From NCBI RefSeq assembly GCF_965221685.1, contig NZ_OZ244907.1: DNA of 64,000 nucleotides; one strand, written 5' to 3'. The DNA comes from Candidatus Palauibacter sp. GTDB lineage: Bacteria; Gemmatimonadota; Gemmatimonadetes; Palauibacterales; Palauibacteraceae. Shown here piece after piece: positions 21,243-38,378 of this stretch. Under the pieces are notes generated by a model. The model saw only the letters and a program-made list of their open reading frames with translations. It was not told where the DNA came from and searched no databases. How positions within the stretch are numbered: position 1 is the first letter of the stretch; the number at the start of each line of letters is the position of its first letter. Position numbers and translations under genes: made by a program.

Positions 21243-21419
21243 CGCGGTCTGACTGACCGGCCAAGGCATACCTCGACGACATCCTCGCTGCGGGCGCATC
21301 CGTTCACTTCTCCCGCGTCGCACTTGGACTCGAGGACGGATAGCGCAGTCGGGCAACCCTGATGTTAGTGGAAACGGTCCTATCCGTGGTCGAGTCCAAA
21401 CTCCACGCGAGGGACTGCA

Positions 21420-22757: not shown

Positions 22758-22850
22758 CATGTCGACTTGTCCGGCCGGGCCCCGCGAGTCCGCATGACAT
22801 GTACGTCAACCCGATGAACCGATGCAGGTCAACCAGATGGAGGTGTCTAC

Positions 22851-23549
22851 GTGCAAGCGGAAATGCAGCAGGTGATGCGGACGATCCGTTGGCTGCAGGG
22901 CTACGCCATCCTGGCCAGCATCGCCCTCGTCGTGCTGTTCGTCAGGAATGGGGTGGAGGAGGAGGATGTCCTGCGGGCGCGAGGGCTGATCATCGAGGAT
23001 GAGGTCGGGCGCGAGAGGATTCTCATCGGCGCTCCGGTCCCCGAGGCCGCGAACCGCGTTCGGACCGATGACGCTCGCGTGCGGGAGGTCTGGGCACCCC
23101 GGTTTCCCGAGGCGTACATGGACTACTACCAGGACTACAGCCACGACACCAACGGGATGTTGATCCTCAGCGAGGACGGATTCGATCGCCTCGTCGTCGG
23201 GGATCCCACGCCCGATCCGAACATAGGCAGGCGTATCGCGCCGGCTACCGGCATGGTGATCAACGACGACCAGGGGTTCGAGCGCTCCGGGTACGGCGTA
23301 TTGGCCGTGAATGGGGGCTATAACGTCGGTTTGGGCCTCGACACGGATCGTATCGCAGAGGGGCTCAGCCTGGTCCTGCAGGATGATGGCCCTCACGGCA
23401 TTCTGGTCGGCACGCCGGCGGACGGGATCTTTCTTGGCACCGCGCCCGCCGGACACGCCTGGACGGGCCTTGAGGAGGAATTTTCGGGGCTGCTGGCCCG
23501 GCGAGATGGCGAGATCGTGCACCAACTGAATCTCGCGGCCGGCAATTGA
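22851..23549 (+). CDS. Paralog 3 of the 232-aa membrane-anchored family (mosaic: leader and N-terminus like paralog 1, core like paralog 2)
   Basis: 5' leader gaaccgatgcaggtcaaccagatggaggt... and first about 35 codons are near-identical to paralog 1. The remainder is near-identical to paralog 2. Confidence 0.65.
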   Translation: MQAEMQQVMRTIRWLQGYAILASIALVVLFVRNGVEEEDVLRARGLIIEDEVGRERILIGAPVPEAANRVRTDDARVREVWAPRFPEAYMDYYQDYSHDTNGMLILSEDGFDRLVVGDPTPDPNIGRRIAPATGMVINDDQGFERSGYGVLAVNGGYNVGLGLDTDRIAEGLSLVLQDDGPHGILVGTPADGIFLGTAPAGHAWTGLEEEFSGLLARRDGEIVHQLNLAAGN

Positions 23550-23619
23550 GGCGGTCTGACTCACCGGCCAGCCCGTGAGCCTGCATGATGTTGTACGTCA
23601 ACCCGAAACACGGATGCCG

Positions 23620-23883
23620 CACATGCCGAACCAGCTCGTCCAGGCCCGCATCGACACAGCCGTGAAGGAGGGGGCGGCCACGGTGCTGGCGGCCATGGGC
23701 CTGACCGCCTCCGACGCCTTGCGCCTCCTTCTGATCAAGGTCGCCCAGGAGAAAGCGCTGCCGTTCGCGCCGCTGGTTCCCAACGCCGCCACGATTGAAG
23801 CGATGAGAGAGGCCCGCCGGGGCGACCTCCGGCAGGCGGCCAGCGTAGAGGACCTCTTCAACGATCTGCGCGCGGACGATTGA
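23620..23883 (+). CDS. RelB/DinJ-family antitoxin (apparently orphan)
   Basis: MPNQLVQARIDTAVKEGAATVLAAMGLTASDALRLLLIKVAQEKALPF matches DinJ. C-terminal PNAATIEAMREARRGDL...EDLF matches the DinJ tail. No RelE/YafQ ORF follows. Confidence 0.65.
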   Translation, partial: HMPNQLVQARIDTAVKEGAATVLAAMGLTASDALRLLLIKVAQEKALPFAPLVPNAATIEAMREARRGDLRQAASVEDLFNDLRADD

Positions 23884-23902
23884 GCGGACCAGGCGCGTCG
23901 GC

Positions 23903-24223
23903 TTACTGGTCGTCGGCCCCTTCGAGCTCCGCGAACAGCTCTTCCGCGCTTGCGAATCGAGCCGTTCCCTGCCTCATCATCTCCTCGCTCTCGGCCATGG
24001 CTCTACGGGTCTCAGCGTTCGGCACCTTGAGAGTGCTGCGGGCCGCCTGACGCGCGGTCGTCGTTTCGCCCTCGACGTCGGTGACGGGGTGCAACTCTCC
24101 CCGGTTGAACTTCTCCAGGATCTCCCGTTCTTCCCGGTCCAACTGATCGTTCACGGCGATTGCCTCCTCTGACGTTCCCGCGTCGCGTTCATCCGCATCT
24201 CCTTGATCTGGATCGTGATACAC
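23903..24223 (-). CDS. Putative antitoxin-like addiction-module component (acidic; DinJ-type C-terminal segment)
   Basis: LDREEREILEKFNRGELHPVTDVEGE resembles addiction-module antidote components. C-terminal VPNAETRRAMAESEEMMRQG...EELFAELE parallels the DinJ tail of the adjacent gene. No toxin partner seen. Confidence 0.35.
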   Translation of the reverse strand: MYHDPDQGDADERDAGTSEEAIAVNDQLDREEREILEKFNRGELHPVTDVEGETTTARQAARSTLKVPNAETRRAMAESEEMMRQGTARFASAEELFAELEGADDQ

Positions 24224-24286
24224 CGTGTTGGGCGGTTGTTTCCCCGTAGGCCAGGCCCCACTTGGACGCCAAACCGTCCGTTCGCG

Positions 24287-24394
24287 CCGGCGGCAGCCTG
24301 CAAGTTGTCACTTGACAGGCGACGCTCCACCGTCGAGCCCTTCAGCTTCGAGGACGGCACGGCGGCCGATGTGGACTACGTGGACTACCACTGA
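24287..24394 (+). pseudogene. Remnant of a HigB (RelE-like killer protein) toxin gene: only the C-terminal about 20 codons retained
   Basis: ...TVEPFSFEDGTAADVDYVDYH* matches the conserved HigB_toxin C-terminus (...FRWEDGDAYDVEIVDYH). Upstream part of the ORF (24203..) has no HigB similarity. Sits immediately 5' of the higA gene. Confidence 0.45.
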
Positions 24395-24409
24395 AGGGGA
24401 GGACCGACC

Positions 24410-24697
24410 ATGGCCATGCACGACCCGCCGCATCCGGGCGGCATCGTGAGGCGGCAGTGCCTTGAACCGTTGGGTCTGACCGTGACGCGGGCGGCGGAGG
24501 GCCTGGGCGTCACTCGGCAGGCGCTTTCGGAGTTGTTGAACGGGCATACCGGAGTGTCGGTCGAGATGGCGATCCGGCTGTCGAAGGCCTTCGGCTCGAC
24601 GCCCGAGACGTGGCTGGGGATGCAGATAGCGTACGATCTCTGGCAGGCGCGCGGTCACGCCCGGGAGATGACGGTGGAACGCTTTGCGGCGATCTGA
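24410..24697 (+). CDS. higA: HigA-family antitoxin (XRE-type HTH)
   Basis: HPGGIVRRQCLEPLGLTVTRAAEGLGVTRQALSELLNGHTGVSVEMAIRLSKAFGSTPETWLGMQ is the canonical HigA HTH region. Confidence 0.7.
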   Translation: MAMHDPPHPGGIVRRQCLEPLGLTVTRAAEGLGVTRQALSELLNGHTGVSVEMAIRLSKAFGSTPETWLGMQIAYDLWQARGHAREMTVERFAAI

Positions 24698-24709
24698 GGA
24701 GGATTCCTG

Positions 24710-24994
24710 ATGCGATACGCTTACCCGTGCGAACTGACGCCCGAGAAGAACGGTGGCTACTCGGTGTCCTTCCCGAATGTGCCGGAGGCGTTGACGTGCG
24801 GCGACGACCGGGACGAGGCCCTGGCGATGGCCGAGGACGCTCTGACCGTGGCGCTCGGCTCGTACATGCGGTGTCGCGAGGACATCCCGGTGCCAGACTC
24901 CGTGGCGGACCAGCAGGAGGTGGTCGCGGTTCCGCGGGTGGTTGCGGCGAAGCTCGCGCTCTACACTGCCATGCGACGGTTCGGAAGCTCCTGA
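24710..24994 (+). CDS. HicB-like (UPF0150) antitoxin-fold protein
   Basis: MRYAYPCELTPEKNGGYSVSFPNVPEALTCGDDRDEALAMAEDAL matches the HicB N-terminal RNase-H-like fold consensus (YPVILEKDEDGGYVVTFPDLPGCITQGDTLEEAL). Confidence 0.55.
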   Translation: MRYAYPCELTPEKNGGYSVSFPNVPEALTCGDDRDEALAMAEDALTVALGSYMRCREDIPVPDSVADQQEVVAVPRVVAAKLALYTAMRRFGSS

Positions 24995-25028
24995 ACCTGA
25001 ATCACCTCACGCATCGAGTCGAAGGGCC

Positions 25029-25229
25029 ATGAGCATCAAGGCGGAATACCGGGATGGAGTCTTCGCGCCCCTGCATGAGGTCGAGGAGCCCACGGCCGGA
25101 GAGGTCTACGAAGTCTTCTCCGAGGGCGAACTAAAACGGCTCGCGGCGAACCTTCCGTGGCTGAAAGACTCGGAGCGCAGCTTCGAGTTCTGGGAGAACG
25201 AGGAGGATGCCGTCTACGATAGCCTATAG
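25029..25229 (+). CDS. DUF104-type small antitoxin-like protein
   Basis: MSIKAEYRDGVFAPLHEVEEPTAGEVYEV matches the DUF104 pattern (M.I.A.YENGVLKPLE.LDL.EGE.V.V). GAAGGG RBS. Start trimmed from 24942. Confidence 0.45.
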   Translation: MSIKAEYRDGVFAPLHEVEEPTAGEVYEVFSEGELKRLAANLPWLKDSERSFEFWENEEDAVYDSL

Positions 25230-25286
25230 GCGGGACGACATCGTTCTCGTTTCCTTCCCCTTCACCGATCTCAAGGTGCCGCTGTT

Positions 25287-25601
25287 TCATGCTCCGCAGT
25301 TCCGCGCGAACCACTCGACGCCTTCGTCGCGAATATGCTCCAGCAGCGTTCTGTCGCGAACCGAGTCGTACAGGATCAGATCGACCGACTGCGCCATCGG
25401 AATCTCTTCGACCGCTGCGGCGAGACGCGCCTGGTCCGTCAACGTCAGCCGGTCACCGAACCGCGCGATGTCCACGTCGGAGGTTGTGGTGTTCGTCCCG
25501 GTCGCCCTGGATCCGAACAGGACGGCTCGTTCCACGCGGCCATTGGCCGCGATCACGGCGATGATCGCCTCGCGGTGCGCGTCCTTGAGGCCATCCGTCA
25601 T
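25287..25601 (-). CDS. Minimal nucleotidyltransferase (MNT; HI0073-like) of a HEPN/MNT toxin-antitoxin pair
   Basis: LFGSRATGTNTTTSDVDIA carries the GSx9-13DxD polymerase-beta-type NTase motif. 4-nt overlap with the upstream HEPN gene. Confidence 0.7.
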   Translation of the reverse strand: MTDGLKDAHREAIIAVIAANGRVERAVLFGSRATGTNTTTSDVDIARFGDRLTLTDQARLAAAVEEIPMAQSVDLILYDSVRDRTLLEHIRDEGVEWFARNCGA

Positions 25602-26011
25602 GGCGATCGCTTGGCGTCCAGAGTCCAGTAGAGCCGCAGCAGGACGGGGTGGTAGCGTTCCTTGATCAGCGCTTCCGCCTCCTCGGCCACATCGAGCACG
25701 TAGGCGTGGCTCAAGAGGTTGCGCTTGTCCAGCGCGTCGAGCAGGGTCTCGCAGTCGCTCTCCCCGATGTAGCCCGCCTCGAAGCTGTTGCGAATCGCCG
25801 CGCGCGGGACCTTCACGTCATGACCGTCATAGAAGAGGAGGTCCTTGAGCACCTTCCAGGACAGCTCGAAGCTGAACTCGAACGTCTTGATCAGCCCAGC
25901 CAGTTCCAGGTAGTCACACCGTTCCCTGTCGCAGGCTTTCGTGAGTTGCGCGAGCACCGTTCCGAAAGTGTCGAGCCGCTGCTGCCAGCGCCGTTCATCC
26001 GAACTGCTCAT
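25598..26011 (-). CDS. HEPN-domain protein (HI0074 / nucleotidyltransferase-substrate-binding family)
   Basis: Conserved Rx4-6H motif RNLLSHAY near the C-terminus. WQQRLDTF...ELAGLIKTFEF pattern of the HI0074 family. Start taken at the second Met (alternative 26047). Confidence 0.65.
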   Translation of the reverse strand: MSSSDERRWQQRLDTFGTVLAQLTKACDRERCDYLELAGLIKTFEFSFELSWKVLKDLLFYDGHDVKVPRAAIRNSFEAGYIGESDCETLLDALDKRNLLSHAYVLDVAEEAEALIKERYHPVLLRLYWTLDAKRSP

Positions 26012-26185
26012 CCTTCCCCGCCTCCGAATCCCGAGGCCGGACGTCATCGTTCGTCATCGCTGTAGGGCAACTCCGGGAGCCGGAGTCGTGAGATAGAATA
26101 AGCCATGTGTCCCACCGCCGTATACCTTGCCGGAGCAGGGGTGCCCAGAGTTGACCGATCGGGCCAGAGTAGCCATTGAGTCCAC

Positions 26186-26437
26186 ATGCGAGAAATCACG
26201 GCCGGAGAGGCGAAGGACCGGTTCGACCAACTGCTTCGGTCCGCCCAGCAGGGGCCCGTGCGGGTCACGCAGAACGGCACGCCGGTGGGCGTGATGCTGT
26301 CGGTGGAGCAGTTCGAACGACTGCTCGGAACTGCCCGGGACCGGTTGGCGGCCACGATGGACGCCATGAGCCGGGAGGCAGCCGCCAACGACCTGACGCC
26401 AGCGGCGCTGGAGTCCCTGCTCTCCGATGAAGGCTGA
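26186..26437 (+). CDS. Phd/YefM-family antitoxin (apparently orphan)
   Basis: MREITAGEAKDRFDQLLRSAQQGPVRVTQNGTPVGVMLSVEQFERL matches the Phd/YefM N-terminal fold. No Doc/YoeB ORF downstream. Confidence 0.7.
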   Translation: MREITAGEAKDRFDQLLRSAQQGPVRVTQNGTPVGVMLSVEQFERLLGTARDRLAATMDAMSREAAANDLTPAALESLLSDEG

Positions 26438-26445
26438 CAGGGTCG

Positions 26446-26676
26446 TTACGCTCCGCTGCGGGCGACAGCTGCGTCGGCGGCTTCGGCCACGGAGCGGTAG
26501 CCGTCCCATTGCCGATGCGCGGCCTCGTCCTCGGGGTTCGCGTCGGAAGGCACGAGATACCAGCGGTCGGCCCGGTCGGATTCCCCGTCCATGAAGTGAC
26601 CGCGCACGAGGCGATACCCGGCCATCTCGGCCCGGAACCTATGGGCGCGGATGATGACGTTTGGATCAAACCTCAT
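26446..26676 (-). CDS. Small hypothetical protein, third gene of the RelE-like/XRE operon
   Basis: MRFDPNVIIRAHRFRAEMAGYRLVRGHFMDGESDRADRWYLVPSDANPEDEAAHRQWDGYRSV. Start overlaps the stop of the XRE gene by 4 nt (26673-26676). No recognisable family. Confidence 0.35.
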   Translation of the reverse strand: MRFDPNVIIRAHRFRAEMAGYRLVRGHFMDGESDRADRWYLVPSDANPEDEAAHRQWDGYRSVAEAADAAVARSGA

Positions 26677-26957
26677 GGCGATGGCACCAGTGCATGCCTC
26701 ACTGCGTTGGGATCGTGCTTGATGATGCGCAGAAGAGCTACCGCCGGGCCGCTGACACGTCGTCTCCCCTGCTCCCACTTTCGGTAGCCGGACAGACTCA
26801 TTCCCATCAGGGCCGCCATTTGAATCTGCGTCAGCTTCGCCTCCATCCGAACCTCGCGGGGGGAGATCGGGGCGTGAACGATGGCGGGACCCTCCCCCTT
26901 GGCATGGTCCAAGGCCTCGTTCAAGGACTGGATCAGGTCTTCTCCGAACGTACTCAT
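26673..26957 (-). CDS. XRE-family HTH antitoxin (HigA-2-like) partner of the RelE-family toxin
   Basis: EDLIQSLNEALDHAKGE...KLTQIQMAALMGMSLSGYRKWEQGRRRVSGPAVALLRIIKHDPNAV matches the antitoxin family that pairs with HigB-2/RelE-like toxins. Confidence 0.65.
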   Translation of the reverse strand: MSTFGEDLIQSLNEALDHAKGEGPAIVHAPISPREVRMEAKLTQIQMAALMGMSLSGYRKWEQGRRRVSGPAVALLRIIKHDPNAVRHALVPSP

Positions 26958-27295
26958 TCCCTCCCCCGCTTTCCTTGAAGTTTGATGGCGGCTACGAGCG
27001 CAGCCACCGCTCGGCGCTCGCCAGGGTTCAGATCGGTCTTGCCGGACTTCGAGTAGGCGAGAAGCGCGTAGATTGGCATTTCCTCGCCCCCGAAGAAATA
27101 AACTACGCGGACACCACCCCGCTTACCGCGCCCGGAGGCTCCGAATCGCATCTTTCGGACCCCGCCGGTGCCGGGAATCTCGGACCCCGCCAAGGGGTGA
27201 TCGGCCAAGTAGTCGATCAGTTCGCGTCTCTCGTCCTCGTTGAACAGCTTGTCGGCCTGGCGGGAGAAGGTTGGAGTTTCGGCAACGGTCTGCAT
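26954..27295 (-). CDS. RelE/ParE-superfamily toxin (HigB-2-like)
   Basis: IPGTGGVRKMRFGASGRGKRGGVRVVYFFGGEEMPIYALLAYSKSGKTDL is the signature core of this toxin family. Start set at Met 27295 (the ORF-track start 27502 adds an Arg/Pro-rich, unlikely extension). Confidence 0.65.
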   Translation of the reverse strand: MQTVAETPTFSRQADKLFNEDERRELIDYLADHPLAGSEIPGTGGVRKMRFGASGRGKRGGVRVVYFFGGEEMPIYALLAYSKSGKTDLNPGERRAVAALVAAIKLQGKRGRE

Positions 27296-27351
27296 GGGAC
27301 CATGGTAACCCAGTGGGGTACACACGGCAATTCCGGAATGCTCGGTCACAC

Positions 27352-27888
27352 ATGCAGACCGAACCGGTCGAGGCCGCGTTCCTCGGGCCACCGGCTGAGA
27401 TGGCACGATTGCCTCCGGCGGCGATCCAGCACATCGCGGCCAGGTACGGCGGGGACTCCTCGCGCATCTGGGCCGACGGGAGCAGCGGCGCTGCCGTGGC
27501 AAGACGGTTCCTGGCTTTTGACGGTGTTGGCCGGAAGATCGCCAACATGGCCGTGAACATCCTGATTCGCGATTTCCACATCGGACTCACGACGCCCATG
27601 CCCGACATTGCGGTCGACACTCACGTGCTGCGGGTGTTCGAGCGGCTGGGCCTCCTCGACAGGCTCGAACACAGCCAGCTACGCTCGACCAGGGACAAGC
27701 AGGGACTCCGGCTCCAGCTGCGCGCTCGCGAGCTCAGCCCGGAGTGGCCGGGGGAACTCGACTGGCCGGCATGGCACCTCGGGACGAAGTGGTGTCACGC
27801 CGGGCGGGCGCCGGAGTGTGGGGAGTGCTACATGAGGGACGTGTGTCCGAGGGTTGGAGTGGGTTCGAGGTCGACGGCTGGATCGTGA
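27352..27888 (+). CDS. HhH-GPD base-excision-repair family protein with endonuclease III-type [4Fe-4S] cluster loop (short form)
   Basis: Helix-hairpin-helix FDGVGRKIANMAVNIL followed by catalytic-Asp region IAVDTHVLRVFERLGL. C-terminal CHAGRAPECGECYMRDVC is the Cx6Cx2Cx5C EndoIII cluster. N-terminal domain is shorter than canonical Nth. Confidence 0.55.
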   Translation: MQTEPVEAAFLGPPAEMARLPPAAIQHIAARYGGDSSRIWADGSSGAAVARRFLAFDGVGRKIANMAVNILIRDFHIGLTTPMPDIAVDTHVLRVFERLGLLDRLEHSQLRSTRDKQGLRLQLRARELSPEWPGELDWPAWHLGTKWCHAGRAPECGECYMRDVCPRVGVGSRSTAGS

Positions 27889-28260
27889 ACTTGGGCGCAG
27901 TTGCGCGGTCCGTCCGGCGGGCCTGCGTGGCACCCGAGGCAGCGTGAGACCCGGTCTCGGTGAGGCCGCGCGTCACGTGAAGCTACTTCGCAAGGTGTGG
28001 CGGATCGACGAGGGGGCCGGCACGACCTTTTTCATGGACGGCAAGGAGGTGTACTATTGATCACGCACGGTGACCGCTGAGCCCCAGCCGAGACGGACTC
28101 AGCGGCGCTGAAGGATCATGATGTCGGATGAGGGAGGGGGTGGTGATGGTCCGCTTTCGTTCAACTCGCCGTAGCTCCGAATCCGGGGCGACGCCTTTTG
28201 TATTCCCACGAGGGCCCTCGCTCGACCGATTCTCAACAGCCTATGAGATGATACCTACAT

Positions 28261-29787
28261 ATGTCTGACATCCCAGCAAACTCCATCCCGGCCCTGAAGG
28301 TCAACCAATGGCTATCCCACTGGGATGACATCAGTTGGAAACCGGAAGAACACCGATCAAAGCCGCCGCGGTCGTTCTATCAGTTCAACGTTTCCGCTCA
28401 CGTGCTGCGTCGCCTTAGTGGAGTCTATAGGAGAACCACCGACCGAGATCGCGGGACTTCCGATCTGGGCATTCAGCGCCGCCACGAGCCCAAACGATCC
28501 GAGGAAATCGCTCGGTTCGTCAAGTACGGATATCCCTGGTCGGTTCTCAGTGCGACTAAGCGTCAACAACCTGACTTCGCAGACTTGCGCCAACCCGGTT
28601 GGCTTCCGACAGCAATCCTCATCAACATTCTCACCGCTGACGATGAACGCCAGGGTAATGGCGTCGCAAAGGGCGATCTCGTTGAGATCCGCGAAGATGG
28701 CGATATGCACCACGTCGTTCTCCCCCACGGCCTAGATTCAGGGGACTGGGAATACAAGACCGTACCACCAATTGAAGTAATCGACGGACAGCACCGGCTT
28801 TGGGCGTTCGATGACACCGCTCTCAATGGCAGTTTTGAGCTACCTGTTGTTGCGTTCTTTGGCTTAGATCGGAGTTGGCAGGCATACCTGTTCTACACAA
28901 TCAACATAAAGCCAAAGAAGATAAATCCGAGTCTGGCTTTCGACCTCTACCCTTTGCTGCGTACTGCGACTTGGCTCGAGAAACTTGAAGGCCCCAAGGT
29001 GTACCGCGAATCGCGAGCCCAGGAGATTGTAGACATCCTATGGGCTCATCCGGAGAGCCCGTGGTATCGTCGCATCAACATGCTCGGCGAACCCGGGCAC
29101 CGGGGCTTGATGGTGACGCAGGCGGGCTGGATTAGATCTCTCCTGGCGTCCTTTGTGAAGAGGTGGGAAGCGCGCACTGCTCCGGGCGGCCTTTTCGGCA
29201 GTCCAATGGGCAGCCATGAGACGGTTCTCCCGTGGACTCTGGAGCAGCAGGCGGCCTTCCTGATCTTCCTCGGACAGCGGTTGCGTGCGACCGTCGAGGA
29301 GTCCGACGATGAATGGATGTCCGCTCTACGGCAGCGATGGTCTGATCCCGAGGACGAAGGTGATCCAGCGTTCGTTGGGCGCCACAACCTGCTAAATCAA
29401 GACCAGGGCTTACGAGCATTCCTCCAAGTGTCCAACGACGTTTGCTACGTGGCCCCAGAGCACTGGCTACAAGAAGAAGAACTTGTTTCTGTTCCGTCAG
29501 ATCCCGATGAGTCCGATGGCGTGGCCGCCGCCCTGCGACACTTTGAGAAGAACGAGCTGCTTTGCACACACATCGACGAGTTGAGTCAAACTCTCGCGGA
29601 GTTCGACTGGCGATCTTCGGATGCGTCTGACTTGACTCCAGATGAGCATCTGCGGAAGTCCGCTTTTCGGGGCAGCGGTGGATATCGCATGCTTCGCGAG
29701 GAGCTGCTTCGTCACCTCTCCGATGACGAGTCGACTGTCGGGTTGGCTGCCGAGGAGGTTCTCAGAATGCTCGGTGTGGCCGAATGA
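28261..29787 (+). CDS. DGQHR-domain protein (DndB/DpdB-like, ParB/Srx-fold)
   Basis: Exact DGQHR motif in PIEVIDGQHRLWAFDD. 508 aa. Lower-GC gene preceded by an AT-rich intergenic region. First gene of a 3-gene operon (ATGA overlap with the next gene at 29784-29787). Confidence 0.8.
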   Translation: MSDIPANSIPALKVNQWLSHWDDISWKPEEHRSKPPRSFYQFNVSAHVLRRLSGVYRRTTDRDRGTSDLGIQRRHEPKRSEEIARFVKYGYPWSVLSATKRQQPDFADLRQPGWLPTAILINILTADDERQGNGVAKGDLVEIREDGDMHHVVLPHGLDSGDWEYKTVPPIEVIDGQHRLWAFDDTALNGSFELPVVAFFGLDRSWQAYLFYTINIKPKKINPSLAFDLYPLLRTATWLEKLEGPKVYRESRAQEIVDILWAHPESPWYRRINMLGEPGHRGLMVTQAGWIRSLLASFVKRWEARTAPGGLFGSPMGSHETVLPWTLEQQAAFLIFLGQRLRATVEESDDEWMSALRQRWSDPEDEGDPAFVGRHNLLNQDQGLRAFLQVSNDVCYVAPEHWLQEEELVSVPSDPDESDGVAAALRHFEKNELLCTHIDELSQTLAEFDWRSSDASDLTPDEHLRKSAFRGSGGYRMLREELLRHLSDDESTVGLAAEEVLRMLGVAE

Positions 29788-31085
29788 CACCAGTAAATGT
29801 CGGCTCGGCGGATCGACGTTTGGTGCGGGCCGCGATGGAGCGTCTGACGCCGCACCTTGCGGCCGGACAGGGGTTGCCTCCGGGCCACCGCTACGCCGAT
29901 GGCAGGCCCGGGCGCCAGCCGGTCAATGACTCGGCGCTGGCCGAATACATCGCTCTGTCCGCAGTTCAGCATGCGTTCGACGGGTGGGCGTACTGGGGAC
30001 GAGCGGTTGCCGCGGAGATCAGCGGAGATTCCAACGTCGCGAGCCATCTGGGGTACTACGCAGAGCTTCGCGCCGCCAAGGCGATCCTAGCTTCCGAGGG
30101 CATTGGGTTGTTCGCCAACCAAGTGGCTGTCGTGCACGGCAATGGTCGGTGCGTCCTGGAAACAGGGCAAGGCAGTTCTCATAAGGTGCTGTGGGAAGCT
30201 CTCGAGGAATGGAGCAAAGGCAAGGCCCAGGGCATTGTCTTTCGTCTCTTGGGGCCGTTTGGCCACTCGATTTCGGATTGGCTCCAGCACTTTTCCAGAT
30301 CTTCCAACGCGGTCGCTGAAGACTGGTTGCGTGCGTGGGGTCTGGACTTGCAGGAGTTGGCGAAAGGCGAGAGCGGCCGACGCAACGTAGCCAGCTACGA
30401 GCCCAGCGGGTGTCCTCAAACCGAAAGGGAGCAATCGGAGAAGGCGCTCGACCACATCACGAGGTTGTGGCGATCATGCCAGCCGACGGGCACGGGGGTT
30501 AATCTCGCCTTGGACAGGCTGGTCCTTCGGGCTACGCTGGAATCCGTTTTTCAAGCTGGCGATGCTGAGGAGCGATCTGCCAGCGAAGCGCGTGACCAGT
30601 ACTGCGCGAAGGTGCGCCATACGGTGGAGTCTCTCTCCTTGGGACAATCGATCGGCCAGGCAATCCTCAGATTCCTTGATCCGCAGGAGATTCCGGAAGG
30701 CATGGACATCTTCGAGATCGCTAAACGGACGAGCGACGCGCGTACCAGGACGCATGTGACCGAGGTGCTTTCTCGAGCGGTGCTGCTTCTCCGGCTGGCT
30801 ACCGCATGTGCGCATGACTTGCTGGGCGAACTCGGCACCGACCCAAGGGCCGCCACCCAGCACTGGTGGGAGAGTCGACACGTTCGACGTGGCCTTTGGC
30901 CCGTTGGCCATACCTTGGATTCGTTCTCAGACCTCTGGGACGAGGCGGACGAAGCGCTTGACACTTTGGCAAACCAGCCCAATGGAGGGTCTACGTTCGG
31001 ACTTCGGAGCTCGGATTGCGCCAGTTCGGTAGCGACACTTGCGACGGCCGAGCGGATCTTTTTCTGGGGTAGCTTTGCAGCATGA
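29784..31085 (+). CDS. Hypothetical 433-aa protein with no recognisable domain, middle gene of the DGQHR-MTase operon
   Basis: Continuous ORF with coding-like composition. Translationally coupled at both ends (ATGA overlaps at 29784-29787 and 31082-31085). No motifs recognised by eye. Confidence 0.55.
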   Translation: MTPVNVGSADRRLVRAAMERLTPHLAAGQGLPPGHRYADGRPGRQPVNDSALAEYIALSAVQHAFDGWAYWGRAVAAEISGDSNVASHLGYYAELRAAKAILASEGIGLFANQVAVVHGNGRCVLETGQGSSHKVLWEALEEWSKGKAQGIVFRLLGPFGHSISDWLQHFSRSSNAVAEDWLRAWGLDLQELAKGESGRRNVASYEPSGCPQTEREQSEKALDHITRLWRSCQPTGTGVNLALDRLVLRATLESVFQAGDAEERSASEARDQYCAKVRHTVESLSLGQSIGQAILRFLDPQEIPEGMDIFEIAKRTSDARTRTHVTEVLSRAVLLLRLATACAHDLLGELGTDPRAATQHWWESRHVRRGLWPVGHTLDSFSDLWDEADEALDTLANQPNGGSTFGLRSSDCASSVATLATAERIFFWGSFAA

Positions 31086-32233
31086 CGCTACGGAGCATGA
31101 AGTACATGGGCTCCAAGCGAGTGATGCTTGCCAACGGCCTAGGTGACGTGTTGGCCGAGGAGTCGAAGTCGGCAGCTCGGTTTGTCGATCTCTTCTGTGG
31201 TACCGGAGTCGTATCGTGGTTCATGGCGACGAGGAGCGAACTCCCCGTACTGTCCTGCGATCTGCAGAGTTTTGCGACGACCATGGCGGCATCGGTTGTC
31301 AAACGTACGGACAATAGCGGACTGGATCAGGAGATCGATTCTTGGCTGCGTCGTGTCCGTGAAACCCGGGAGGAACGGCCTGGTTGGTCGGAGGCCGCGG
31401 AGCTGGATGGTTCCAAGGTGCCGATTGCCGTTTGGTGGAAGGAGGCCCGCGAGCTATGCGGTGAGGCGGGGTCCGAGGGATGTGGCCTAGTGTGGCGCAA
31501 CTACGGCGGTCATTACTTCAGCCCTACTCAAGCGGCATCCCTGGACGCAATGATGGAGACTTTGCCAGCCGAGGGGAGGGCAAGGGACGTTTGTTTGGCG
31601 GCGACCATAACGACCGCCAGCCAATGTGCGGCGGCGCCGGGCCACACAGCCCAACCCTTCAAGGCCACAACCACCGCTGGGCCCTACCTGCGTGAGGCGT
31701 GGTGCAGGGATCCCCTCTCCCGCGTTCGCGAAGCAGCGGAGATTCTAGTTTCCATGTGCGCGCTTCGGCGAGGAGACACGAAGACGGGCGACGCCAATGA
31801 GATCGCGCGCGAGGTCACGGAAGAGGACCTGGTCTTCGTCGATCCGCCGTACTCCGATGTTCAATACAGCCGGTTCTACCACGTCCTCGAAACGATCGCA
31901 CGTGGCGAGTGCGGCGTGGTGTCCGGTGTCGGAAGGTACCCTCCCTTCACCGAGAGGCCCGCCTCGGACTACAGTCGGGTCAAGGCTTCTGCCACGGCGA
32001 TGGCGAATCTTCTGGAGATTCTTGCCAGCACGGGTGCCGCAGTAGTGGTCACTTTCCCGGAGCAGCAGTGCAGCAACGGCCTCTCTGGGCTGCGCATCGA
32101 GGAAATGGCCAAGCAGCACTTCCAAGTGGTAAAGCGAACGGTTACGTCGAGGTTCAGCACACTGGGTGGCAACACCCGGAATCGGGACGCACGCAGCATC
32201 CGAAACGAACTGATTCTTGTGATGAGGACGTGA
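31082..32233 (+). CDS. Dam-like D12-class N6-adenine DNA methyltransferase (extended, 383 aa)
   Basis: N-terminal KYMGSKR (Dam motif I, Y-x-GSK) and VFVDPPYSDVQYSRFYH (motif IV DPPY). About 100 aa longer than E. coli Dam. Confidence 0.8.
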   Translation: MTLRSMKYMGSKRVMLANGLGDVLAEESKSAARFVDLFCGTGVVSWFMATRSELPVLSCDLQSFATTMAASVVKRTDNSGLDQEIDSWLRRVRETREERPGWSEAAELDGSKVPIAVWWKEARELCGEAGSEGCGLVWRNYGGHYFSPTQAASLDAMMETLPAEGRARDVCLAATITTASQCAAAPGHTAQPFKATTTAGPYLREAWCRDPLSRVREAAEILVSMCALRRGDTKTGDANEIAREVTEEDLVFVDPPYSDVQYSRFYHVLETIARGECGVVSGVGRYPPFTERPASDYSRVKASATAMANLLEILASTGAAVVVTFPEQQCSNGLSGLRIEEMAKQHFQVVKRTVTSRFSTLGGNTRNRDARSIRNELILVMRT

Positions 32234-32427
32234 CGTAAGCCGCATGTAGAGTCCCATCGAGGACTCGTTGCCGATCCGGACGGTCGCGCGTCGAGCGCAC
32301 TCCCTTGCCCCTACTTCCTCAAGGTGTAGCGTAGCGTCGTGGAGCTTGCGCGCAGAGTTACTGCCGCTGGCGAGACGGTCTCCCGCCGACCGCATCCCAT
32401 GATTTGTAGGACGAGGAGAGAAGCCTG

Positions 32428-35205
32428 ATGCGCTTGTCGTGGAACGAGGTGCGCGTGCGCGCCGCGAAGTTCGCTGAGGAATGGCGGGACGCGGCATACG
32501 AGAAGGGCGAGACGCAGAGCTTCTACAACGAGTTCTTCGAGGTGTTCGACGTGCGCCGTCGATCCGTCGCACGCTACGAGGAGCACGTTGCCAAGCTCGA
32601 CGACCGTTCGGGCTTCATCGATTTGTTCTGGCCGGGCGTGCTGATCGTCGAGCAGAAGAGCGCCGGTCGCGATCTCGCTAAAGCGTATGGGCAAGCCGGG
32701 GATTATTTCGACGCGCTGCCAGAACGCGACCGCCCTCGCTACATCCTGGTGAGCGATTTCCAGACCTTCGAGCTTCACGACCTCTCCGAGCGGCGGAAGC
32801 TGGCCTTCCCTCTCGCCGAACTGCCCGCCCATGTCGAGGCGTTCGGCTTCATCCTCGGCGTTCAGCGCCGGACGTTTCGGGACCAAGATCCGGCGAACGT
32901 CGAGGCCGCCGAACTGGTTGGACGCCTCCACGATGCGCTCGAAGCCGCAGGCTACCGAGGCCACGACCTGGAGCGGTTCCTGGTGCGCATTGTCTTCTGC
33001 CTCTTCGCCGACGATACGGGCGTCTTCGAGCCGCGCGACATCCTGTTCGACTTCCTGGAGTCACGCACGCGCGAGGACGGGACCGACCTCGGGGCGATGC
33101 TTGCCCAACTCTTCCAAGTCCTCGATACGCCGGAAGAGGACCGAACGGCGACACTCGATGAGGATTTGGCCCGGTTTCCGTACGTCAATGGCGACCTGTT
33201 CGACGGGCCGCTGCGTATTCCGGCGTTCGACGCGTCCATGCGGGAAAAGCTCCTCGACGCATCCCGGTTCGACTGGTCCAACATCTCGCCTGCCATCTTC
33301 GGAGCGCTCTTTCAGTCGGTCATGGATCCGGCGGAGCGGCGGGCCCAGGGGGCGCACTACACCACCGAAAAGAACATCCTCAAGGTGATCGAGCCGCTGT
33401 TCCTCGATGACTTGCGGGCTGAGTTCGAGCGCCTGAAGCGCCGCAAGGACAGCCGTCGTCGTGCCGATCTGCGACGCTTTCAGGAGAAGCTTGGCAGCAT
33501 GACGTTCTTCGATCCGGCATGCGGGTGTGGCAACTTCCTCATCATCGCCTATCGTGAGCTACGGGAACTGGAGATCGAAGTCCTCAAGGAGATCCATCCC
33601 GACAAACAGCTCGACGTCTTGGCGGAGACGCTGTCGGGCGTGGATGTGGACCAGTTCTACGGAATCGAGTTGGGCGAGTTCCCGGCCCGCATCGCCGAAA
33701 CGGCGCTGTGGATGATGGACCACATCATGAACAACCGGCTGAGTTTGGAGTTCGGTGAGACATACGCCCGAATTCCTCTCACGTCCTCACCCCATATCAC
33801 TCACGGCGACGCGCTGGAGATGGATTGGGCCGAGTTGTTGCCCCGGGAGGAGTGCTCCTTCGTGTTCGGTAATCCGCCGTTCGGGGGCGCGAAGTTCCAG
33901 AGTTCGGCCCAGCGCGCGCAGGTCCAGAGAATCGCCAACCTTGGCGGGACGGGAGGTACGCTCGACTACGTGACCGCGTGGTTCATCAAAGCTGGGGAAT
34001 ACGCGCGTGGAACCCGGATCCGGATCGGATTCGTTGCGACCAATTCTATCACTCAAGGAGAGCAGGTGGCCCAGCTCTGGCCGATTCTCTTCAACCGCTG
34101 CGGGCTCGCGATCGCCTTCGCGCACCGGACTTTTGCGTGGGGCTCGGACGCGCGCGGAAGGGCCCATGTGCATGTGGTCATCATCGGGCTGGACGGCCAG
34201 CACGCAGTGCCGTCGGTGAAGCGGCTGTTCAGCTATCCGGACATCAACGGCGAGCCGGAGGAAACCGAACACGAGGTGCTTTCGCCGTACCTGTTCGACG
34301 CCAGCGGTCTCGCCGACCCCCACCTGACGGTTCGGGAGGAGAGCGCTCCGGTGAACGGGTTGCCGAGGCTAATCATCGGGTCCAAGCCGATCGATGGTGG
34401 CCACTACATCTTCAGAACGGCAGAGAAACGCGCCGAGTTCGTCGCGGCGGAACCGGCGGCGGAGCCGTATGTGCGCCCCTACATCGGCGCGCGCGAATAC
34501 TTGCAGGGTGGCGGCAGGTGGATTCTCGCCTTGCACGATGTCCCGCCGAACGTCTTAGCGGGGATGCCGGTCGCGCGGGAACGGATCGTGGCGGTGCGTG
34601 CGCACCGCGAGGCCAGCCGGAGTGCGTCTACGAGGAGGCTGGCGGAGACCCCCACTCTCTATCATGTCAACGTCATCCCAGACGCGCCCTTCCTCGTCGT
34701 CCCCGAGGTAAGTTCGTAGCGGCGGGAGTACGTTCCGATTGGCTGGCTCGAACCCCCTGTGATCCCGAGCAATAAGCTTCGATTACTCGCCGACGCGAAC
34801 CTCTCGCATTTCGCTGTTCTTACGTCCGCCATGCACATGGCGTGGCTGCGCTACGTGGGTGGGCGCTTGGAGAGCCGCTACAGTTACGGGATCGGCATGG
34901 TATACAACACCTTTCCGATGCCCCCCGCCACATCTGATGTCTCGAAGCTGGAATCCTTAGCTAAGGCCGTAATCGACACTCGCGCCGCCTATCCTGACGC
35001 GACGCTGGCGGATCTCTACGACCCGGACTTGATGCCGCCCGACCTACGCCGCGCACACCAAGCGATTGACCGCGCCGTGGATCGGCTCTATCGCCGGACG
35101 GGATTCGCCTCGGAGCGTGAACGCGCCGAGCATCTCTTCATGCTGTACGAGAAGATGAGCGCTCCCCTAGGCATCGGGATCAAGAAACCGAAGCGTCGGC
35201 GATGA
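32428..35205 (+). pseudogene. MmeI-family Type IIL (Type IIG-like) restriction-modification enzyme gene interrupted by a single in-frame TAG at 34717-34719
   Basis: N-terminus MRLSWNEVRVRAAKFAEEWRD...GFIDLFWPGVLIVEQKSAGRDLAKAYGQAGDYF parallels the MmeI N-terminus. MTase motif I FFDPACGCGNFL and motif IV NPPFGG. C-terminal ORF (34759-35205) ...HMAWLRYVGGRLESRYSYGIGMVYNTFP parallels the MmeI C-terminal domain. Both ORFs share one frame separated only by TAG (…VPEVSS*RREYVPIGW…). Combined length about 925 aa. Confidence 0.75.
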
Positions 35206-35290
35206 GATCTGGACCCGGATCACAGCGCGCGCGTTTGAACGATCGGGGCGAGCCTAACATGACGCCCCGCCCAGAGGACCTAACCAACAA

Positions 35291-35494
35291 GTGAGAGAAC
35301 CGATGACCGAGATCGATACTCTGCTCGACGAAGTACACAAGCCACTTGAGGGTCTGCAAGAATTCGAGGAGGAGGAGTCGATCCAGAAGGAAGACTTGGG
35401 CGAACGACTCGCGTTTACCGACATCGTCGAGCCATTGGTTCCAACCGAGTTGGGAGCGACAACGACTCGCCTGCACCGCCTGTTGAAGGTCTGA
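35291..35494 (+). CDS. Small acidic hypothetical protein (67 aa)
   Basis: MREPMTEIDTLLDEVHKPLEGLQEFEEEESIQKEDLGERLAFTDIVEPL. Sits inside the lower-GC island 40 nt upstream of the 601-aa ORF. Weak call. Confidence 0.3.
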   Translation: MREPMTEIDTLLDEVHKPLEGLQEFEEEESIQKEDLGERLAFTDIVEPLVPTELGATTTRLHRLLKV

Positions 35495-35533
35495 CCGCCG
35501 GATGCTTACGGGGCGAGCAGTGAGGCAAGACAC

Positions 35534-37339
35534 ATGAAGATGACCGAACAGACTAACCGCTCTACGTTCGCCAATGCGCAGATAGAATACGAAGGGTCGT
35601 TCGCGACGCCGCAGCGTAACGTGGTCCAGACCATCTACGTCGACTTGACCGGCAAGCTTTCACGCGAAGCGCTATGCCTAGCCAAGGTCTCCGAGCCCCA
35701 GTTCGAGCTCAGAACGGCGGACACAACTCGTCTCTCGCGGCCAGGCGTCTTCCGGAAGACGGGCGAAGTACTCATTAAGGACGAACAGGAGGGGCGCGCT
35801 CAGACATCGACACGCGAAACGATTGAGGGTCCGACAAGCGCGACAACGGAGTTGGACCGGCGCGTGCGTGCGATCAACGCTGGTCTCCGGCTGTCTGACA
35901 CAAAGCTGACTGTGCGCAGCAGTAGGAGGCAGCAGACGAGGCATACGTCCACGTCAGCATTGACGTTTGGTAAGGACTGGCTCATCTACTGCACTTCGCT
36001 CTGGCCGGCAGCTGACGAAAAGGACGCTTGGCACCGCGCGTTCCCCGGAAACTACACGAGCGTGGTTCGCATCCATCGGCCCACGCAGTTCGCGCAGGCC
36101 TTAGGGTTGGGGGTGTGCGAGCATATCGGCGCGAACGGGAAGCCGTCCTCAATGAAGGCGACCTTTCACGGATTTCAGACAGTCGAGGTGCAGCGCGCAA
36201 TGCAGATCGTGCTGCACGGCCCTGTCCTTTACGTCGACGACCCCTATCGCTGCATCGACGAGGCTGACGACGGATGGGCAAAGACCTGTTCGATGATCTT
36301 CGTGAAGTCGTCCGAATACGCGGCGCAGAAGGAGTACCGATTCGCCATGTTGTCGATCTCCCCGGACGTGGGAGAGGTGTTCGACCTGCCCGTCTCGGGG
36401 ATGCTCAGGGACTGCCTGTTGCCGGTGAACGTACCGCTTGGCGCGGCCAACGGCCCTGTGACGCTGGCCTGCGACGAACGGGAACCCGGCGAGCCGCGCG
36501 AGACGCACCGGGGGTACACTTACCGGCGACGCCGGGTGCGGCGGGAGAGCGGGAGCTGGAGCGATGGCGAGCCGGGCGACGAACGGGCCAGGGAAGAGAT
36601 CATCGAGGAGACAGTAACGTCACCGGAAGAGATCCCGGAGCCATTTCCCGAGGAGGCGGAGCAACCCGACATCATCATGTTTGAGTTGGTCGGGGGTCAA
36701 CTGCGTTTCAATCACCGTGTCTACCGGGACGAAGAGACGCACCGCATACGCATCGAGACGCTGCCGATGAATCCGGTGATCATCGACAATCCAAGTCCGG
36801 GCGGTCTGCCGCACGGACTCGAGGTATCGCCGGAGGACCGATTCGAAGCGCTGGACGGAGGGCCAACGGATCCGAGAATCGTGCTCAACTTATTCATTAA
36901 CCCGAGCACACCGAGGCCGCCGGGGCGCTACGAGGTCCTCGAGCAGTGCAGCCGGTCCGACTTGGAACACGCTTTGGCGTGTTGGCGCTCCCTAGGAGCG
37001 GCGGTGAACCTGCTCGAACACGAGGACCGGGAACGGGCGGCGGCGGCGGCCTGGTACGCTGCCGAGTTCATTGTGGACTTGGTGAGCCAGTTCGGACCCA
37101 TCGTTAAGAGCGTATGCGTGATCCGGGAGTGTGTTGTGGTCGTAGAATTCGAGCGCGCGCCGATTTCTGCGGCTGTAGGTTGGGCGACGTTTTCCGGGAC
37201 CGAGACATACACTCTGTGCATACAGCAGGAGAACGTAGAAGAGATCGTGTACCCCTGTCGCGGGCGAATTGGACGGATGAGACCAAGCATCTACGCGGAA
37301 ACCTTGAAGAAGTATGGCTGGCCACCCAAGACACCTTGA
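35534..37339 (+). CDS. Hypothetical 601-aa protein, no recognisable domain; last gene of the island before the tRNA array
   Basis: Long ORF with lower GC than flanks. No nucleotide-binding, nuclease or integrase motifs recognised by eye. Confidence 0.5.
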   Translation: MKMTEQTNRSTFANAQIEYEGSFATPQRNVVQTIYVDLTGKLSREALCLAKVSEPQFELRTADTTRLSRPGVFRKTGEVLIKDEQEGRAQTSTRETIEGPTSATTELDRRVRAINAGLRLSDTKLTVRSSRRQQTRHTSTSALTFGKDWLIYCTSLWPAADEKDAWHRAFPGNYTSVVRIHRPTQFAQALGLGVCEHIGANGKPSSMKATFHGFQTVEVQRAMQIVLHGPVLYVDDPYRCIDEADDGWAKTCSMIFVKSSEYAAQKEYRFAMLSISPDVGEVFDLPVSGMLRDCLLPVNVPLGAANGPVTLACDEREPGEPRETHRGYTYRRRRVRRESGSWSDGEPGDERAREEIIEETVTSPEEIPEPFPEEAEQPDIIMFELVGGQLRFNHRVYRDEETHRIRIETLPMNPVIIDNPSPGGLPHGLEVSPEDRFEALDGGPTDPRIVLNLFINPSTPRPPGRYEVLEQCSRSDLEHALACWRSLGAAVNLLEHEDRERAAAAAWYAAEFIVDLVSQFGPIVKSVCVIRECVVVVEFERAPISAAVGWATFSGTETYTLCIQQENVEEIVYPCRGRIGRMRPSIYAETLKKYGWPPKTP

Positions 37340-37556
37340 TCCGGGAGGCGAATGGCGCCCGGAGGGGGCGGGGTGCATGGGCGCGTGCCAAGCCGGGGAT
37401 CGCGCCGTCCGTTGACGACTCATCGACGCCAAGGACATCCGTCTTGACTCGGTGGAATAACGGTGTGGATGCTGCCAGCACGAAACACGCAAAGCAGTTG
37501 TAGTGATTGGGGTGCGGTGCTGTTAAGCCTGCCAACACGGCATGTTGACCGGGCCG

Positions 37557-37571
37557 AGGCGCCCGGATTTC
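37557..37571. repeat. Direct repeat of the 3' end of tRNA-Pro(CGG) (ggcgcccggattt), candidate att-site remnant
   Basis: gaggcgcccggatttcg at 37555-37571 versus ggggcgcccggatttga at 37672-37688 (plus-strand complement of the tRNA 3' end), same orientation, about 115 nt apart. Confidence 0.3.
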
Positions 37572-37670
37572 GCTACGACCGCCTTCGGCGGCCCGCGTAA
37601 TCCGGGGGGTGACCTTGGCAGCCCGGGCGGGCGGAACAGTACGCCGAACCTGTTGCCCGGGGAATTTTAG

Positions 37671-37744
37671 TCGGGGCGCCCGGATTTGAACCGGGGACCT
37701 CTGCGTCCCGAACGCAGCGCTCTACCGGACTGAGCCACGCCCCG
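37671..37744 (-). tRNA. tRNA-Pro (anticodon CGG)
   Basis: RC: CGGGGCG/TG/GCTC-AGTCCGGTA-GAGC/G/CTGCG-TTCGGGA-CGCAG/AGGTC/CCCGG-TTCAAAT-CCGGG/CGCCCCG/A. 74 nt. Confidence 0.85.
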
Positions 37745-37818
37745 AGGGGTACTGCGGACCGCGCGTGAAGGCGCGGGGCCGGGGTCGCGCTCGCAAACGG
37801 AGCGGCGAACCGGCTGAG

Positions 37819-37891
37819 AGCGGGTGACCGGATTCGAACCGGCGACCTCAACCTTGGCAAGGTTGCGCTCTACCAACTGAGCTACACCCGC
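37819..37891 (-). tRNA. tRNA-Gly (anticodon GCC)
   Basis: RC: GCGGGTG/TA/GCTC-AGTTGGTA-GAGC/G/CAACC-TTGCCAA-GGTTG/AGGTC/GCCGG-TTCGAAT-CCGGT/CACCCGC/U. Discriminator U73 typical for Gly. Confidence 0.85.
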
Positions 37892-37958
37892 GTGTGCTGC
37901 TCCCTCCAGCTGCCGGCGTGGCCCGCCTGCGAGCCGCGGCCGAGAGGGGTGCTGCCAG

Positions 37959-38030
37959 AGCCACCGGTCGGATTTGAACCGACGACCGCCGCATTACGAA
38001 TGCGGTGCTCTACCCCTGAGCTACGGTGGC
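37959..38030 (-). tRNA. tRNA-Thr (anticodon CGT)
   Basis: RC: GCCACCG/TA/GCTC-AGGGGTA-GAGC/A/CCGCA-TTCGTAA-TGCGG/CGGTC/GTCGG-TTCAAAT-CCGAC/CGGTGGC/U. 72 nt. Confidence 0.85.
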
Positions 38031-38109
38031 GAGCCGTCGGACGCTACCCGGGGCGAACCCGTGCGAGAAGACTCGCGGGGGTGCCGGGGGTGGACGCGAC
38101 GACGGAAAA

Positions 38110-38183
38110 TGGAGCCGGCGGGATTTGAACCCGCGACCTCTTGAGTGCGATTCAAGCGCTCTCCCAAACTGAGCTACGGCCCC
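38110..38183 (-). tRNA. tRNA-Ala (anticodon CGC)
   Basis: RC: GGGGCCG/TA/GCTC-AGTTTGGGA-GAGC/G/CTTGA-ATCGCAC-TCAAG/AGGTC/GCGGG-TTCAAAT-CCCGC/CGGCTCC/A. G3:U70 alanine identity pair present. Confidence 0.85.
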
Positions 38184-38212
38184 TCGCTCGACTCCCTCTT
38201 GTCCTCTGGGGA

Positions 38213-38287
38213 CGGGGCTGACGGGATTTGAACCCGCGACCTCCGGTGTGACAGACCGGCACTCTAACCAGACTGAGCTACAGCCCC
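38213..38287 (-). tRNA. tRNA-Asp (anticodon GTC)
   Basis: RC: GGGGCTG/TA/GCTC-AGTCTGGTTA-GAGT/G/CCGGT-CTGTCAC-ACCGG/AGGTC/GCGGG-TTCAAAT-CCCGT/CAGCCCC/G. Discriminator G73 typical for Asp. Confidence 0.85.
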
Positions 38288-38304
38288 CTGCAGCGGCGTT
38301 TCGA

Positions 38305-38378
<74 letters not shown>

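Follow-up and report, generated by a model that had tools for sequence, protein, structure and literature searches.

The 64,000-nucleotide (nt) stretch of Candidatus Palauibacter sp. contig NZ_OZ244907.1 analyzed here, referred to as the window, contains between 27,935 and 37,536 a gene-rich segment that is flanked by a HhH-GPD-like gene on the left and by a 133-nt block next to six tRNA genes on the right. It encodes a triad composed of a DGQHR-domain protein, a 433-residue protein and a Dam-like methyltransferase, followed by an MmeI-type restriction-modification (R-M) gene and a gene for a 601-residue protein. Judging from its composition and from the comparison with related genomes, the 28–37.5 kb stretch is horizontally acquired, variable DNA in a tRNA-adjacent defense hot spot. 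The features of the locus are as follows.

27,271–27,888, plus strand: HhH-GPD/endonuclease III-like gene, the left anchor (weak NCBIfam nth and HhH-GPD matches).
27,935–37,536, no strand: variable slot, the island proper (9.6 kb, 61.1% GC, 89% coding; delimited by blastn against 30 loci, junction alignments and composition).
27,978–32,269, plus strand: Module 1, the DGQHR cassette of three genes, preceded by a conserved leader of 283 nt (matches in L031 and L033/L034).
28,261–29,787, plus strand: DGQHR-domain protein of 508 amino acids (aa), DndB-like, ParB/Srx-fold (TIGR03187).
29,784–31,085, plus strand: 433-aa protein, mostly alpha-helical, without family or fold match.
31,082–32,233, plus strand: D12-class (Dam-like) N6-adenine DNA methyltransferase of 383 aa (PF02086, 9.4e-14; PADLOC MTase_II, 3.7e-20).
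32,343–35,201, plus strand: Module 2, the MmeI-like segment (86.7% nucleotide identity with L001).
32,428–35,205, plus strand: MmeI-family Type IIG R-M gene with an in-frame TAG at 34,717–34,719 (Pfam, PADLOC).
35,474–37,540, plus strand: Module 3, the gene of the 601-aa protein with conserved flanks (84.4% identity with L043, in an unrelated context).
35,534–37,339, plus strand: 601-aa protein without family match.
37,537–37,669, minus strand: 133-nt block downstream of tRNA-Pro, the right anchor (15–16-genome alignment).
37,558–37,570, plus strand: left copy of a 13-nt repeat, forming the 3' arm of a conserved hairpin (repeat search, alignment).
37,562–37,606, minus strand: conserved hairpin, CCCGGATT...AATCCGGG around GACCGCC-TTCG-GGCGGCC (RNAalifold).
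37,670–38,378, minus strand: six tRNA genes, Val, Asp, Ala, Thr, Gly and Pro(CGG) (ARAGORN, Rfam).
37,675–37,687, plus strand: right copy of the 13-nt repeat, within tRNA-Pro(CGG) (acceptor arm, T-stem, T-loop).

A query with ActA against species-representative genomes yielded 30 loci, designated here by L numbers, which were compared with the window by blastn. The closest are Candidatus Palauibacter (Gemmatimonadota) metagenome-assembled genomes (MAGs), with 98% amino-acid and approximately 95% nucleotide identity. The six-tRNA array that an earlier note on this DNA had placed beside the island is indeed present (37,670–38,378, minus strand); the 16 related loci scanned for it all have the same array, and the genes for ActA, ActB and ActC of alternative complex III follow immediately to its right. 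Synteny on this side begins at 37,534–37,555 in about 15 Palauibacter genomes, that is 115–135 nt past the 3' end of tRNA-Pro, and in the multiple alignment the conserved block opens with GCAYGTTGACCGGGCCG-GGCGCCCGGATTT. On the left, homology with Palauibacter stops at approximately 27,931. The HhH-GPD-like anchor has counterparts with 78–90% amino-acid identity in L001, L004, L006, L007 and L012, where they lie 3.3–8.3 kb from the tRNA block, and it is also found in metagenome scaffold L031.

Between these anchors, conserved on the right in about 15 genomes and on the left in five species loci and L031, the cargo differs genome by genome, as judged from a family scan of approximately 30 of the roughly 100 open reading frames (ORFs) in the related slots. 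The slot of L001 holds a ThiF/prokaryotic-E2 operon, a pair composed of a helix-turn-helix (HTH) gene and an M78 peptidase gene, and an intact MmeI-like gene. Type I HsdS/HsdM genes with a DprA-like gene are found in L002, an Eco57I-like methylase with a SNF2/PLD helicase in L026, a C5 methyltransferase in L015, and distant Type IIG genes in L006, L007, L010, L013 and L015. Conserved flanks thus enclose different cargo that is rich in defense genes, which across the slots encompass Type I, Type IIG, C5 and D12 methyltransferases, the Eco57I-like and SNF2/PLD pair and the ThiF/E2 operon. The expectation that related genomes would lack the island genes at this locus was confirmed, as the triad genes and the 601-aa gene occur in none of the 30 loci. 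In L001 (910–3,422), genes for ThiF (E1-like), a prokaryotic E2 family E protein and a 203-aa protein without assignment stand in place of the triad. In P. poriticola (L011), approximately 480 bp replace the whole of 9,966–37,555.

The segment also stands apart by its composition. The GC content of 28,080–37,540 is 61.1%, versus 69.7% for 37,541–64,000, 67.2% for 1–9,966 and 66.2% for 9,967–27,929, and the lowest 1-kb windows (55.7–56.4%) are found at 28–29.5 kb. GC at third codon positions (GC3) ranges from 0.63 to 0.80 in the island genes versus 0.88–0.97 in core genes, the DGQHR gene being the strongest outlier (GC 56.9%, GC3 0.63), and the tetranucleotide distance to the core reaches a maximum of 0.041 over 28–31 kb versus 0.015–0.020 within the core, or about twice background. 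The compositional break that the earlier note had discerned in the letters is thus borne out by sliding-window GC, GC3 and tetranucleotide deviation, with some corrections to its figures. The GC content is lower as claimed, with a mean of about 61% rather than 55–60%, and the left flank is at 62–66% rather than 68%; of two intergenic regions described as AT-rich, 28,200–28,260 is so (52% GC) and 32,240–32,420 is not (64% GC). The left limit proposed near 28.08–28.26 kb was approximately right, the comparison with relatives placing it at about 27,935. Extending the island to the tRNA was not justified, as its true edge is at about 37,537 and both the tRNA and the adjoining 133 nt lie outside the slot. 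The last gene stops 331 nt from the tRNA and about 220 nt from the repeat copy, not 230 nt from tRNA-Pro.

Alignments of the segment with its relatives indicate that the island is not one element. It is composed of three modules, each with sharp ends and a distribution of its own. Module 1 is 94.7% identical to L031 over 27,707–32,269; in that scaffold it comes after the same HhH-GPD gene and is followed by an Eco57I/SNF2-PLD module 88.9% identical to that of L026. It is also 82.4% identical to L033/L034 over 27,978–32,233; in L033, a 4.7-Mb genome, its surroundings are unrelated and a type I R-M system adjoins it. Module 2 is common only to L001 among the loci compared, and its 86.7% identity is lower than the approximately 95% of the flanks. 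The homology of Module 3 with L043, a 4.4-Mb genome, stops at 37,540, exactly at the start of the Palauibacter conserved block.

Two noncoding stretches accompany these modules. The 283-nt leader at 27,978–28,260 moves with the DGQHR cassette. Its conservation relative to L033 is about 82% and takes in the AT-richer stretch that immediately precedes the ATG; a promoter or regulatory element may lie within it. In the 200 nt located 3' of the 601-aa gene (37,340–37,540), conservation with L043 is as high as within the gene; this stretch could contain a small ORF or a small RNA of Module 3, or act as its 3' element.

The first protein of the triad scores 73.5 bits with TIGR03187, versus a cut-off of 58.85, and it remains under the family cut-offs of DpdB (22.7 vs. 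300), DGQHR_dnd_1 (63 vs. 450) and Pfam DndB (23.7 vs. 29.1). Its DGQHR motif and a C-terminal GSGGY...Rx4-5H motif are invariant in the alignment of its homologues, which number more than 3,000; an exact-protein look-up returned no record. The 433-aa protein has no match in Pfam, PADLOC, NCBIfam or PHROG, and profile searches of PDB sequences gave none either. Its AlphaFold2 model, with a predicted local distance difference test score (pLDDT) of 87.4 and a predicted template modeling score of 0.91, has no fold match in the PDB (Foldseek) or in BFVD. The family comprises 1,231 representatives at 50% identity, of uniform length, and its invariant residues include H63, D66, H88, E94, R96, H133, D188, R200 and N201. 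The D12 methyltransferase, whose FCGTG (FxGxG) and DPPY motifs are intact, is a predicted enzyme and would provide the triad with the methyltransferase with catalytic motifs that is expected of a Type II R-M system. No nuclease family or fold was recognized in the DGQHR or the 433-aa protein using Pfam and PADLOC, or using Foldseek against the PDB for the latter. ParB-fold nucleases exist, and a role as nuclease is possible.

The order of the three genes, DGQHR (~500 aa), 433-aa family (~420–455 aa) and D12 methyltransferase, is the same in nine of nine contexts. The triad is found in Gemmatimonadota-like DNA (two scaffolds or genomes), in a 2-Mb metagenomic genome, in Mesorhizobium and in two distant metagenome contigs, and its neighbors are usually R-M, toxin-antitoxin or DarTG genes. 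In P. aeruginosa (L036/L037) it is located within a P4-integrase/AlpA island, and on the Zymomonas mobilis plasmid pZZM405 it lies beside DarT/DarG-like genes (DUF4433, macro-domain), with three more Zymomonas plasmid records carrying it. The methylome of Z. mobilis ZM4, a strain that may or may not carry the triad, comprises two type I motifs and GANTC only (PMC8432527). The HhH-GPD gene was considered as a further member and rejected, as it is kept in Palauibacter genomes devoid of the triad and is absent from seven other triad contexts. In L045 (3,720–4,376), a HhH-GPD/endonuclease III gene directly precedes a DGQHR gene whose neighboring 433-aa-type protein has 26% identity with that of the window; this was judged a coincidence.

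The triad matches no named system, PADLOC 2.0, Pfam, NCBIfam and PHROGs having no model for it, and literature searches on DGQHR and DndB-like proteins yielded no description of it. Like DndB of the Dnd phosphorothioation system and DpdB of the 7-deazaguanine Dpd system, its first protein combines an invariant DGQHR motif and a ParB fold with a DNA-modification partner. Unlike them, it scores far below the equivalog cut-offs, is not accompanied by dndACDE or dpdA/C, and has as constant partners the 433-aa protein and a Dam-like methyltransferase. A HEPN fusion has been reported for DndB (PMC3632139), which the Rx4-5H C-terminus of the triad protein recalls, and DGQHR/ParB-fold proteins bind nucleoside triphosphates (NTPs; bioRxiv 10.1101/2025.10.10.680097). 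The triad most likely represents an R-M-like module for self/non-self discrimination. A bolder proposal, which we make tentatively and with less than even confidence, is that it constitutes an undescribed, widespread three-gene self/non-self defense system, with a 433-aa component whose fold has no match among solved or predicted viral structures, and that such modules spread between Palauibacter strains and other genomes in the form of cassettes devoid of an integrase.

The MmeI-type gene is spread over two ORF halves that together contain the five Pfam domains of MmeI in order, and PADLOC assigns it to REase_MTase_IIG with an E-value of 2.4e-285. Five domains in canonical order are what it shares with MmeI-family Type IIG enzymes. 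Unlike in those, a TAG interrupts the frame at codon 764, within the target-recognition domain (VVPEVSS*RREY), such that the N-terminal, helicase-spacer, methyltransferase, target-recognition and C-terminal domains are all encoded and do not form one polypeptide. The orthologue in L001 is an uninterrupted ORF of 926 aa with GAA at the position of the TAG, which apparently arose by one G>T substitution. Since the family joins restriction and modification in one polypeptide, the gene has probably lost its function and become a pseudogene.

For the 601-aa protein, no match was found in Pfam, PADLOC, NCBIfam, PHROG or the PDB; its AlphaFold2 model is poor (pLDDT 61), which makes this negative result weak. 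Its 164 homologues (47–87% identity) come mainly from metagenome assemblies, including Chloroflexi and Rhodospirillaceae MAGs. Some of them are about 960 aa long, with an N-terminal HTH_3/HTH_31 match recorded for one, and the gene stands alone in varied contexts. The gene list of the earlier note (a DGQHR operon, an MmeI-type gene and two genes without assignment) was correct; its statement that the cargo is all defense-like went too far, since only two methyltransferase-containing units are recognizable, one of them probably a pseudogene.

The repeat on which the idea of a tRNA-integrated island had been based is genuine. The sequence GGCGCCCGGATTT occurs in exactly two direct-orientation copies, at 37,558–37,570 and 37,675–37,687, and two or more matches were obtained in 1 of 100 shuffles. 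Its description as the terminal 13 nt of the tRNA did not hold, as the right copy corresponds to nt 6–18 from the 3' end and extends from the acceptor arm and T-stem into the T-loop. The two copies enclose just about 104 nt, both on the tRNA side of the slot junction, and the left one lies inside the 133-nt block in 15 of 15 Palauibacter genomes, irrespective of the cargo. RNAalifold predicts 25 pairs for the hairpin at 37,562–37,606; they hardly vary, and a single compensatory pair (CG>GC) is seen in 4 of 15 genomes. The predicted fold of the whole block has an energy of -64.1 kcal/mol (z = -2.0), and an Rfam search of 27–39 kb returned the six tRNAs only and no family for the block. It is possible that the hairpin is the terminator of the tRNA operon.

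A longer version of the repeat is present in L011 (9,083–9,250), in the form of a perfect duplication of at least 52 nt that covers the tRNA-Pro trailer together with about 14 nt at the tRNA 3' end, with identity ending in the T-loop; it points to a recent duplication or gene conversion at the tRNA-Pro site. Similarity between the left copy and the tRNA trailer extends marginally beyond the 13-mer, with p = 0.006–0.024 in the window, L002 and L008, and is not significant in 11 other genomes; outside L011, genomes keep only 13–18 nt of the duplication. By these alignments, the 13-nt repeat is what is best preserved of an ancient duplication, which would predate the genus and included the 3' end of tRNA-Pro and its trailer. 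It could be a scar left at tRNA-Pro by an old integration or by a tandem duplication, and it has no visible role in delimiting the present cargo.

Neither an integrase nor attachment (att) sites were detected for the island. All its ORFs of at least 80 aa were scanned with Pfam, PADLOC and NCBIfam, and no integrase was found, in agreement with the earlier note; tblastn with a P4-type integrase gave no match to the island, and the 89% coding density leaves no room for a further gene. The suggestion of a cryptic recombinase in the 601-aa or 433-aa protein found no support in Pfam, PADLOC, NCBIfam, PHROG, profile searches of PDB sequences or Foldseek searches of the PDB, a negative that is weak for the 601-aa protein given its pLDDT of 61. 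Longer att repeats at the two island ends, also suggested, are absent, with only chance 9–12-mers shared between the ends. No copy of the tRNA end was found in 1–37,300, including 27.7–28.4 kb, and neither the left boundary nor the junctions between modules have significant repeats.

Three explanations other than recombination at a hot spot have been considered. In the first, small elements would have inserted serially at the old repeat copy (37,541–37,570), used as a secondary bacterial attachment site (attB), piling up leftward and later losing their integrases and distal att sites. Elements are well known to accrete in tandem at tRNA sites; in about 15 genomes variable sequence begins directly beyond the left repeat copy, and Module 3 ends exactly at the edge of that copy. 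This scenario nevertheless appears unlikely, as there are no att copies at 32.27–32.34 kb, 35.2–35.47 kb or 27.9 kb, no integrase was seen among the slot ORFs scanned in 10 relatives, and Modules 1 and 3 occupy other genomes devoid of such sites.

The second explanation, favored by the earlier note, posits a single island of about 9.5 kb that a tyrosine integrase, later lost, inserted at the 3' end of tRNA-Pro(CGG), with the 13-nt repeat as att core. With tRNA-integrated islands the locus shares tRNA adjacency, atypical composition, absence from relatives, and a true repeat of the tRNA 3' region that ends in the T-loop, the classic crossover position, and that reaches at least 52 nt in L011. 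In addition, the triad rides a P4-integrase island elsewhere (L036/L037). It differs from them in that no integrase or remnant thereof and no distal att site were found, the content is mosaic, and the repeat pair does not bracket the island: both copies are to its right, in 15 of 15 genomes whatever the cargo, and no copy exists on the left. Together with the separate module distributions and sharp internal junctions, these observations largely refute a single integration event as the origin of the present cargo, and we regard it as improbable. What leaves some weight to both integrase-based explanations is mainly that variation sets in exactly where the old repeat copy has its outer edge.

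The third explanation, that the region is native and owes its lower GC content to local function or selection, can draw on the lowish GC content of the left-adjoining 19.5–28 kb (64.8%) and is refuted, with next to no chance of being right, by the absence of the triad and the 601-aa gene from all 30 related loci, by the occurrence of modules at 82–95% identity in unrelated contexts and by GC3 values far under those of the core.

Defense hot spots in the core genome are known in Pseudomonas aeruginosa, and integration hot spots in E. coli. Like such hot spots and the defense islands described by Makarova et al. (2013, PMC3632139), the Palauibacter locus has conserved anchors, a cargo of varying R-M, toxin-antitoxin and other defense genes, many occupants without recombinase and a tRNA at one edge. 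In contrast with them, one of its anchors is a 133-nt hairpin block that carries an old copy of a tRNA 3' end, and its cargo is visibly modular, with modules that strains have in common with each other and with further genomes. We consider it probable that a hot spot for accessory defense genes has long existed at this locus and that 27,935–37,536, a three-module mosaic renewed by homologous recombination, is what it holds at present. Incoming DNA would originate from related strains or co-resident bacteria after DNA uptake. The conserved anchors, or neighboring modules common to both partners, would then be where homologous recombination swaps the cargo, in place of site-specific integration into tRNA-Pro. 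The hairpin block would be retained as a terminator or insulator of the tRNA operon. The methyltransferase of the triad would mark the host DNA; unmarked DNA would be sensed or attacked by the 433-aa protein acting together with the DGQHR protein, a ParB-fold NTP binder.

Several observations weigh against this hot-spot reading. A DDE transposase adjoins the anchor in the slot of L014, and some relative's slot may hold an integrase outside the approximately 30 ORFs scanned. On its right, the variable region stops at the outer end of the old repeat copy, as would likewise be expected if elements had repeatedly inserted site-specifically there, using a secondary att site. The case for recombination comes from breakpoint patterns only. 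Judging from L011, the slot is nested within a plastic region of greater extent. Finally, the defense role attributed to the triad and the 601-aa gene would be guilt by association, no nuclease domain being recognized in either.

Other segments of the window are variable or unusual as well. To the left of the HhH-GPD anchor, a toxin-antitoxin-type cluster (23,560–26,790) encodes RelB, HTH_3, HicB-like, HEPN/NTase-substrate-binding and Phd/YefM proteins; parts of it (hicB, HTH) reappear reordered in L004 and L008, and the cluster lies within the region replaced in L011. Three paralogous 232-aa proteins without family match (19,658–20,356; 20,544–21,242; 22,851–23,549) all match an ORF fragment at L008:3–272. 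At 5,625–7,194, a 1.6-kb insert with a GC content of 0.61–0.63 carries a PIN_10 toxin gene and a DUF433/HTH_66 gene, where L011 has about 100 bp instead; it is immediately downstream of tRNA-Pro(GGG) (7,214–7,289) and presents the geometry of the main slot in miniature. A second variable segment (46,732–49,670), absent or replaced in L004, L008, L010 and others, has genes for a PDZ-domain M48 peptidase and for a protein with Sel1 repeats; at 49,172–49,279, a 33-nt tandem repeat (3.3 copies, 97% matches) is found within a coiled-coil ORF. Toward the right end of the window, an ORF of 3,165 aa with a GC3 of 0.90 occupies 54,486–63,983 on the minus strand.

As a genomic island the segment is ordinary, tRNA-adjacent defense hot spots being well known; here, such a hot spot is documented in an uncultured, sponge-associated or marine genus of Gemmatimonadota, with its limits defined at the base level. 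The sharp limits of its modules offer a clear view of cassette-like shuffling without a recombinase. The MmeI-type gene hit by a nonsense change, next to the intact, 87%-identical orthologue of a sister genome, provides a snapshot of the decay of a defense gene, and the triad is a concrete candidate for testing as a defense system.

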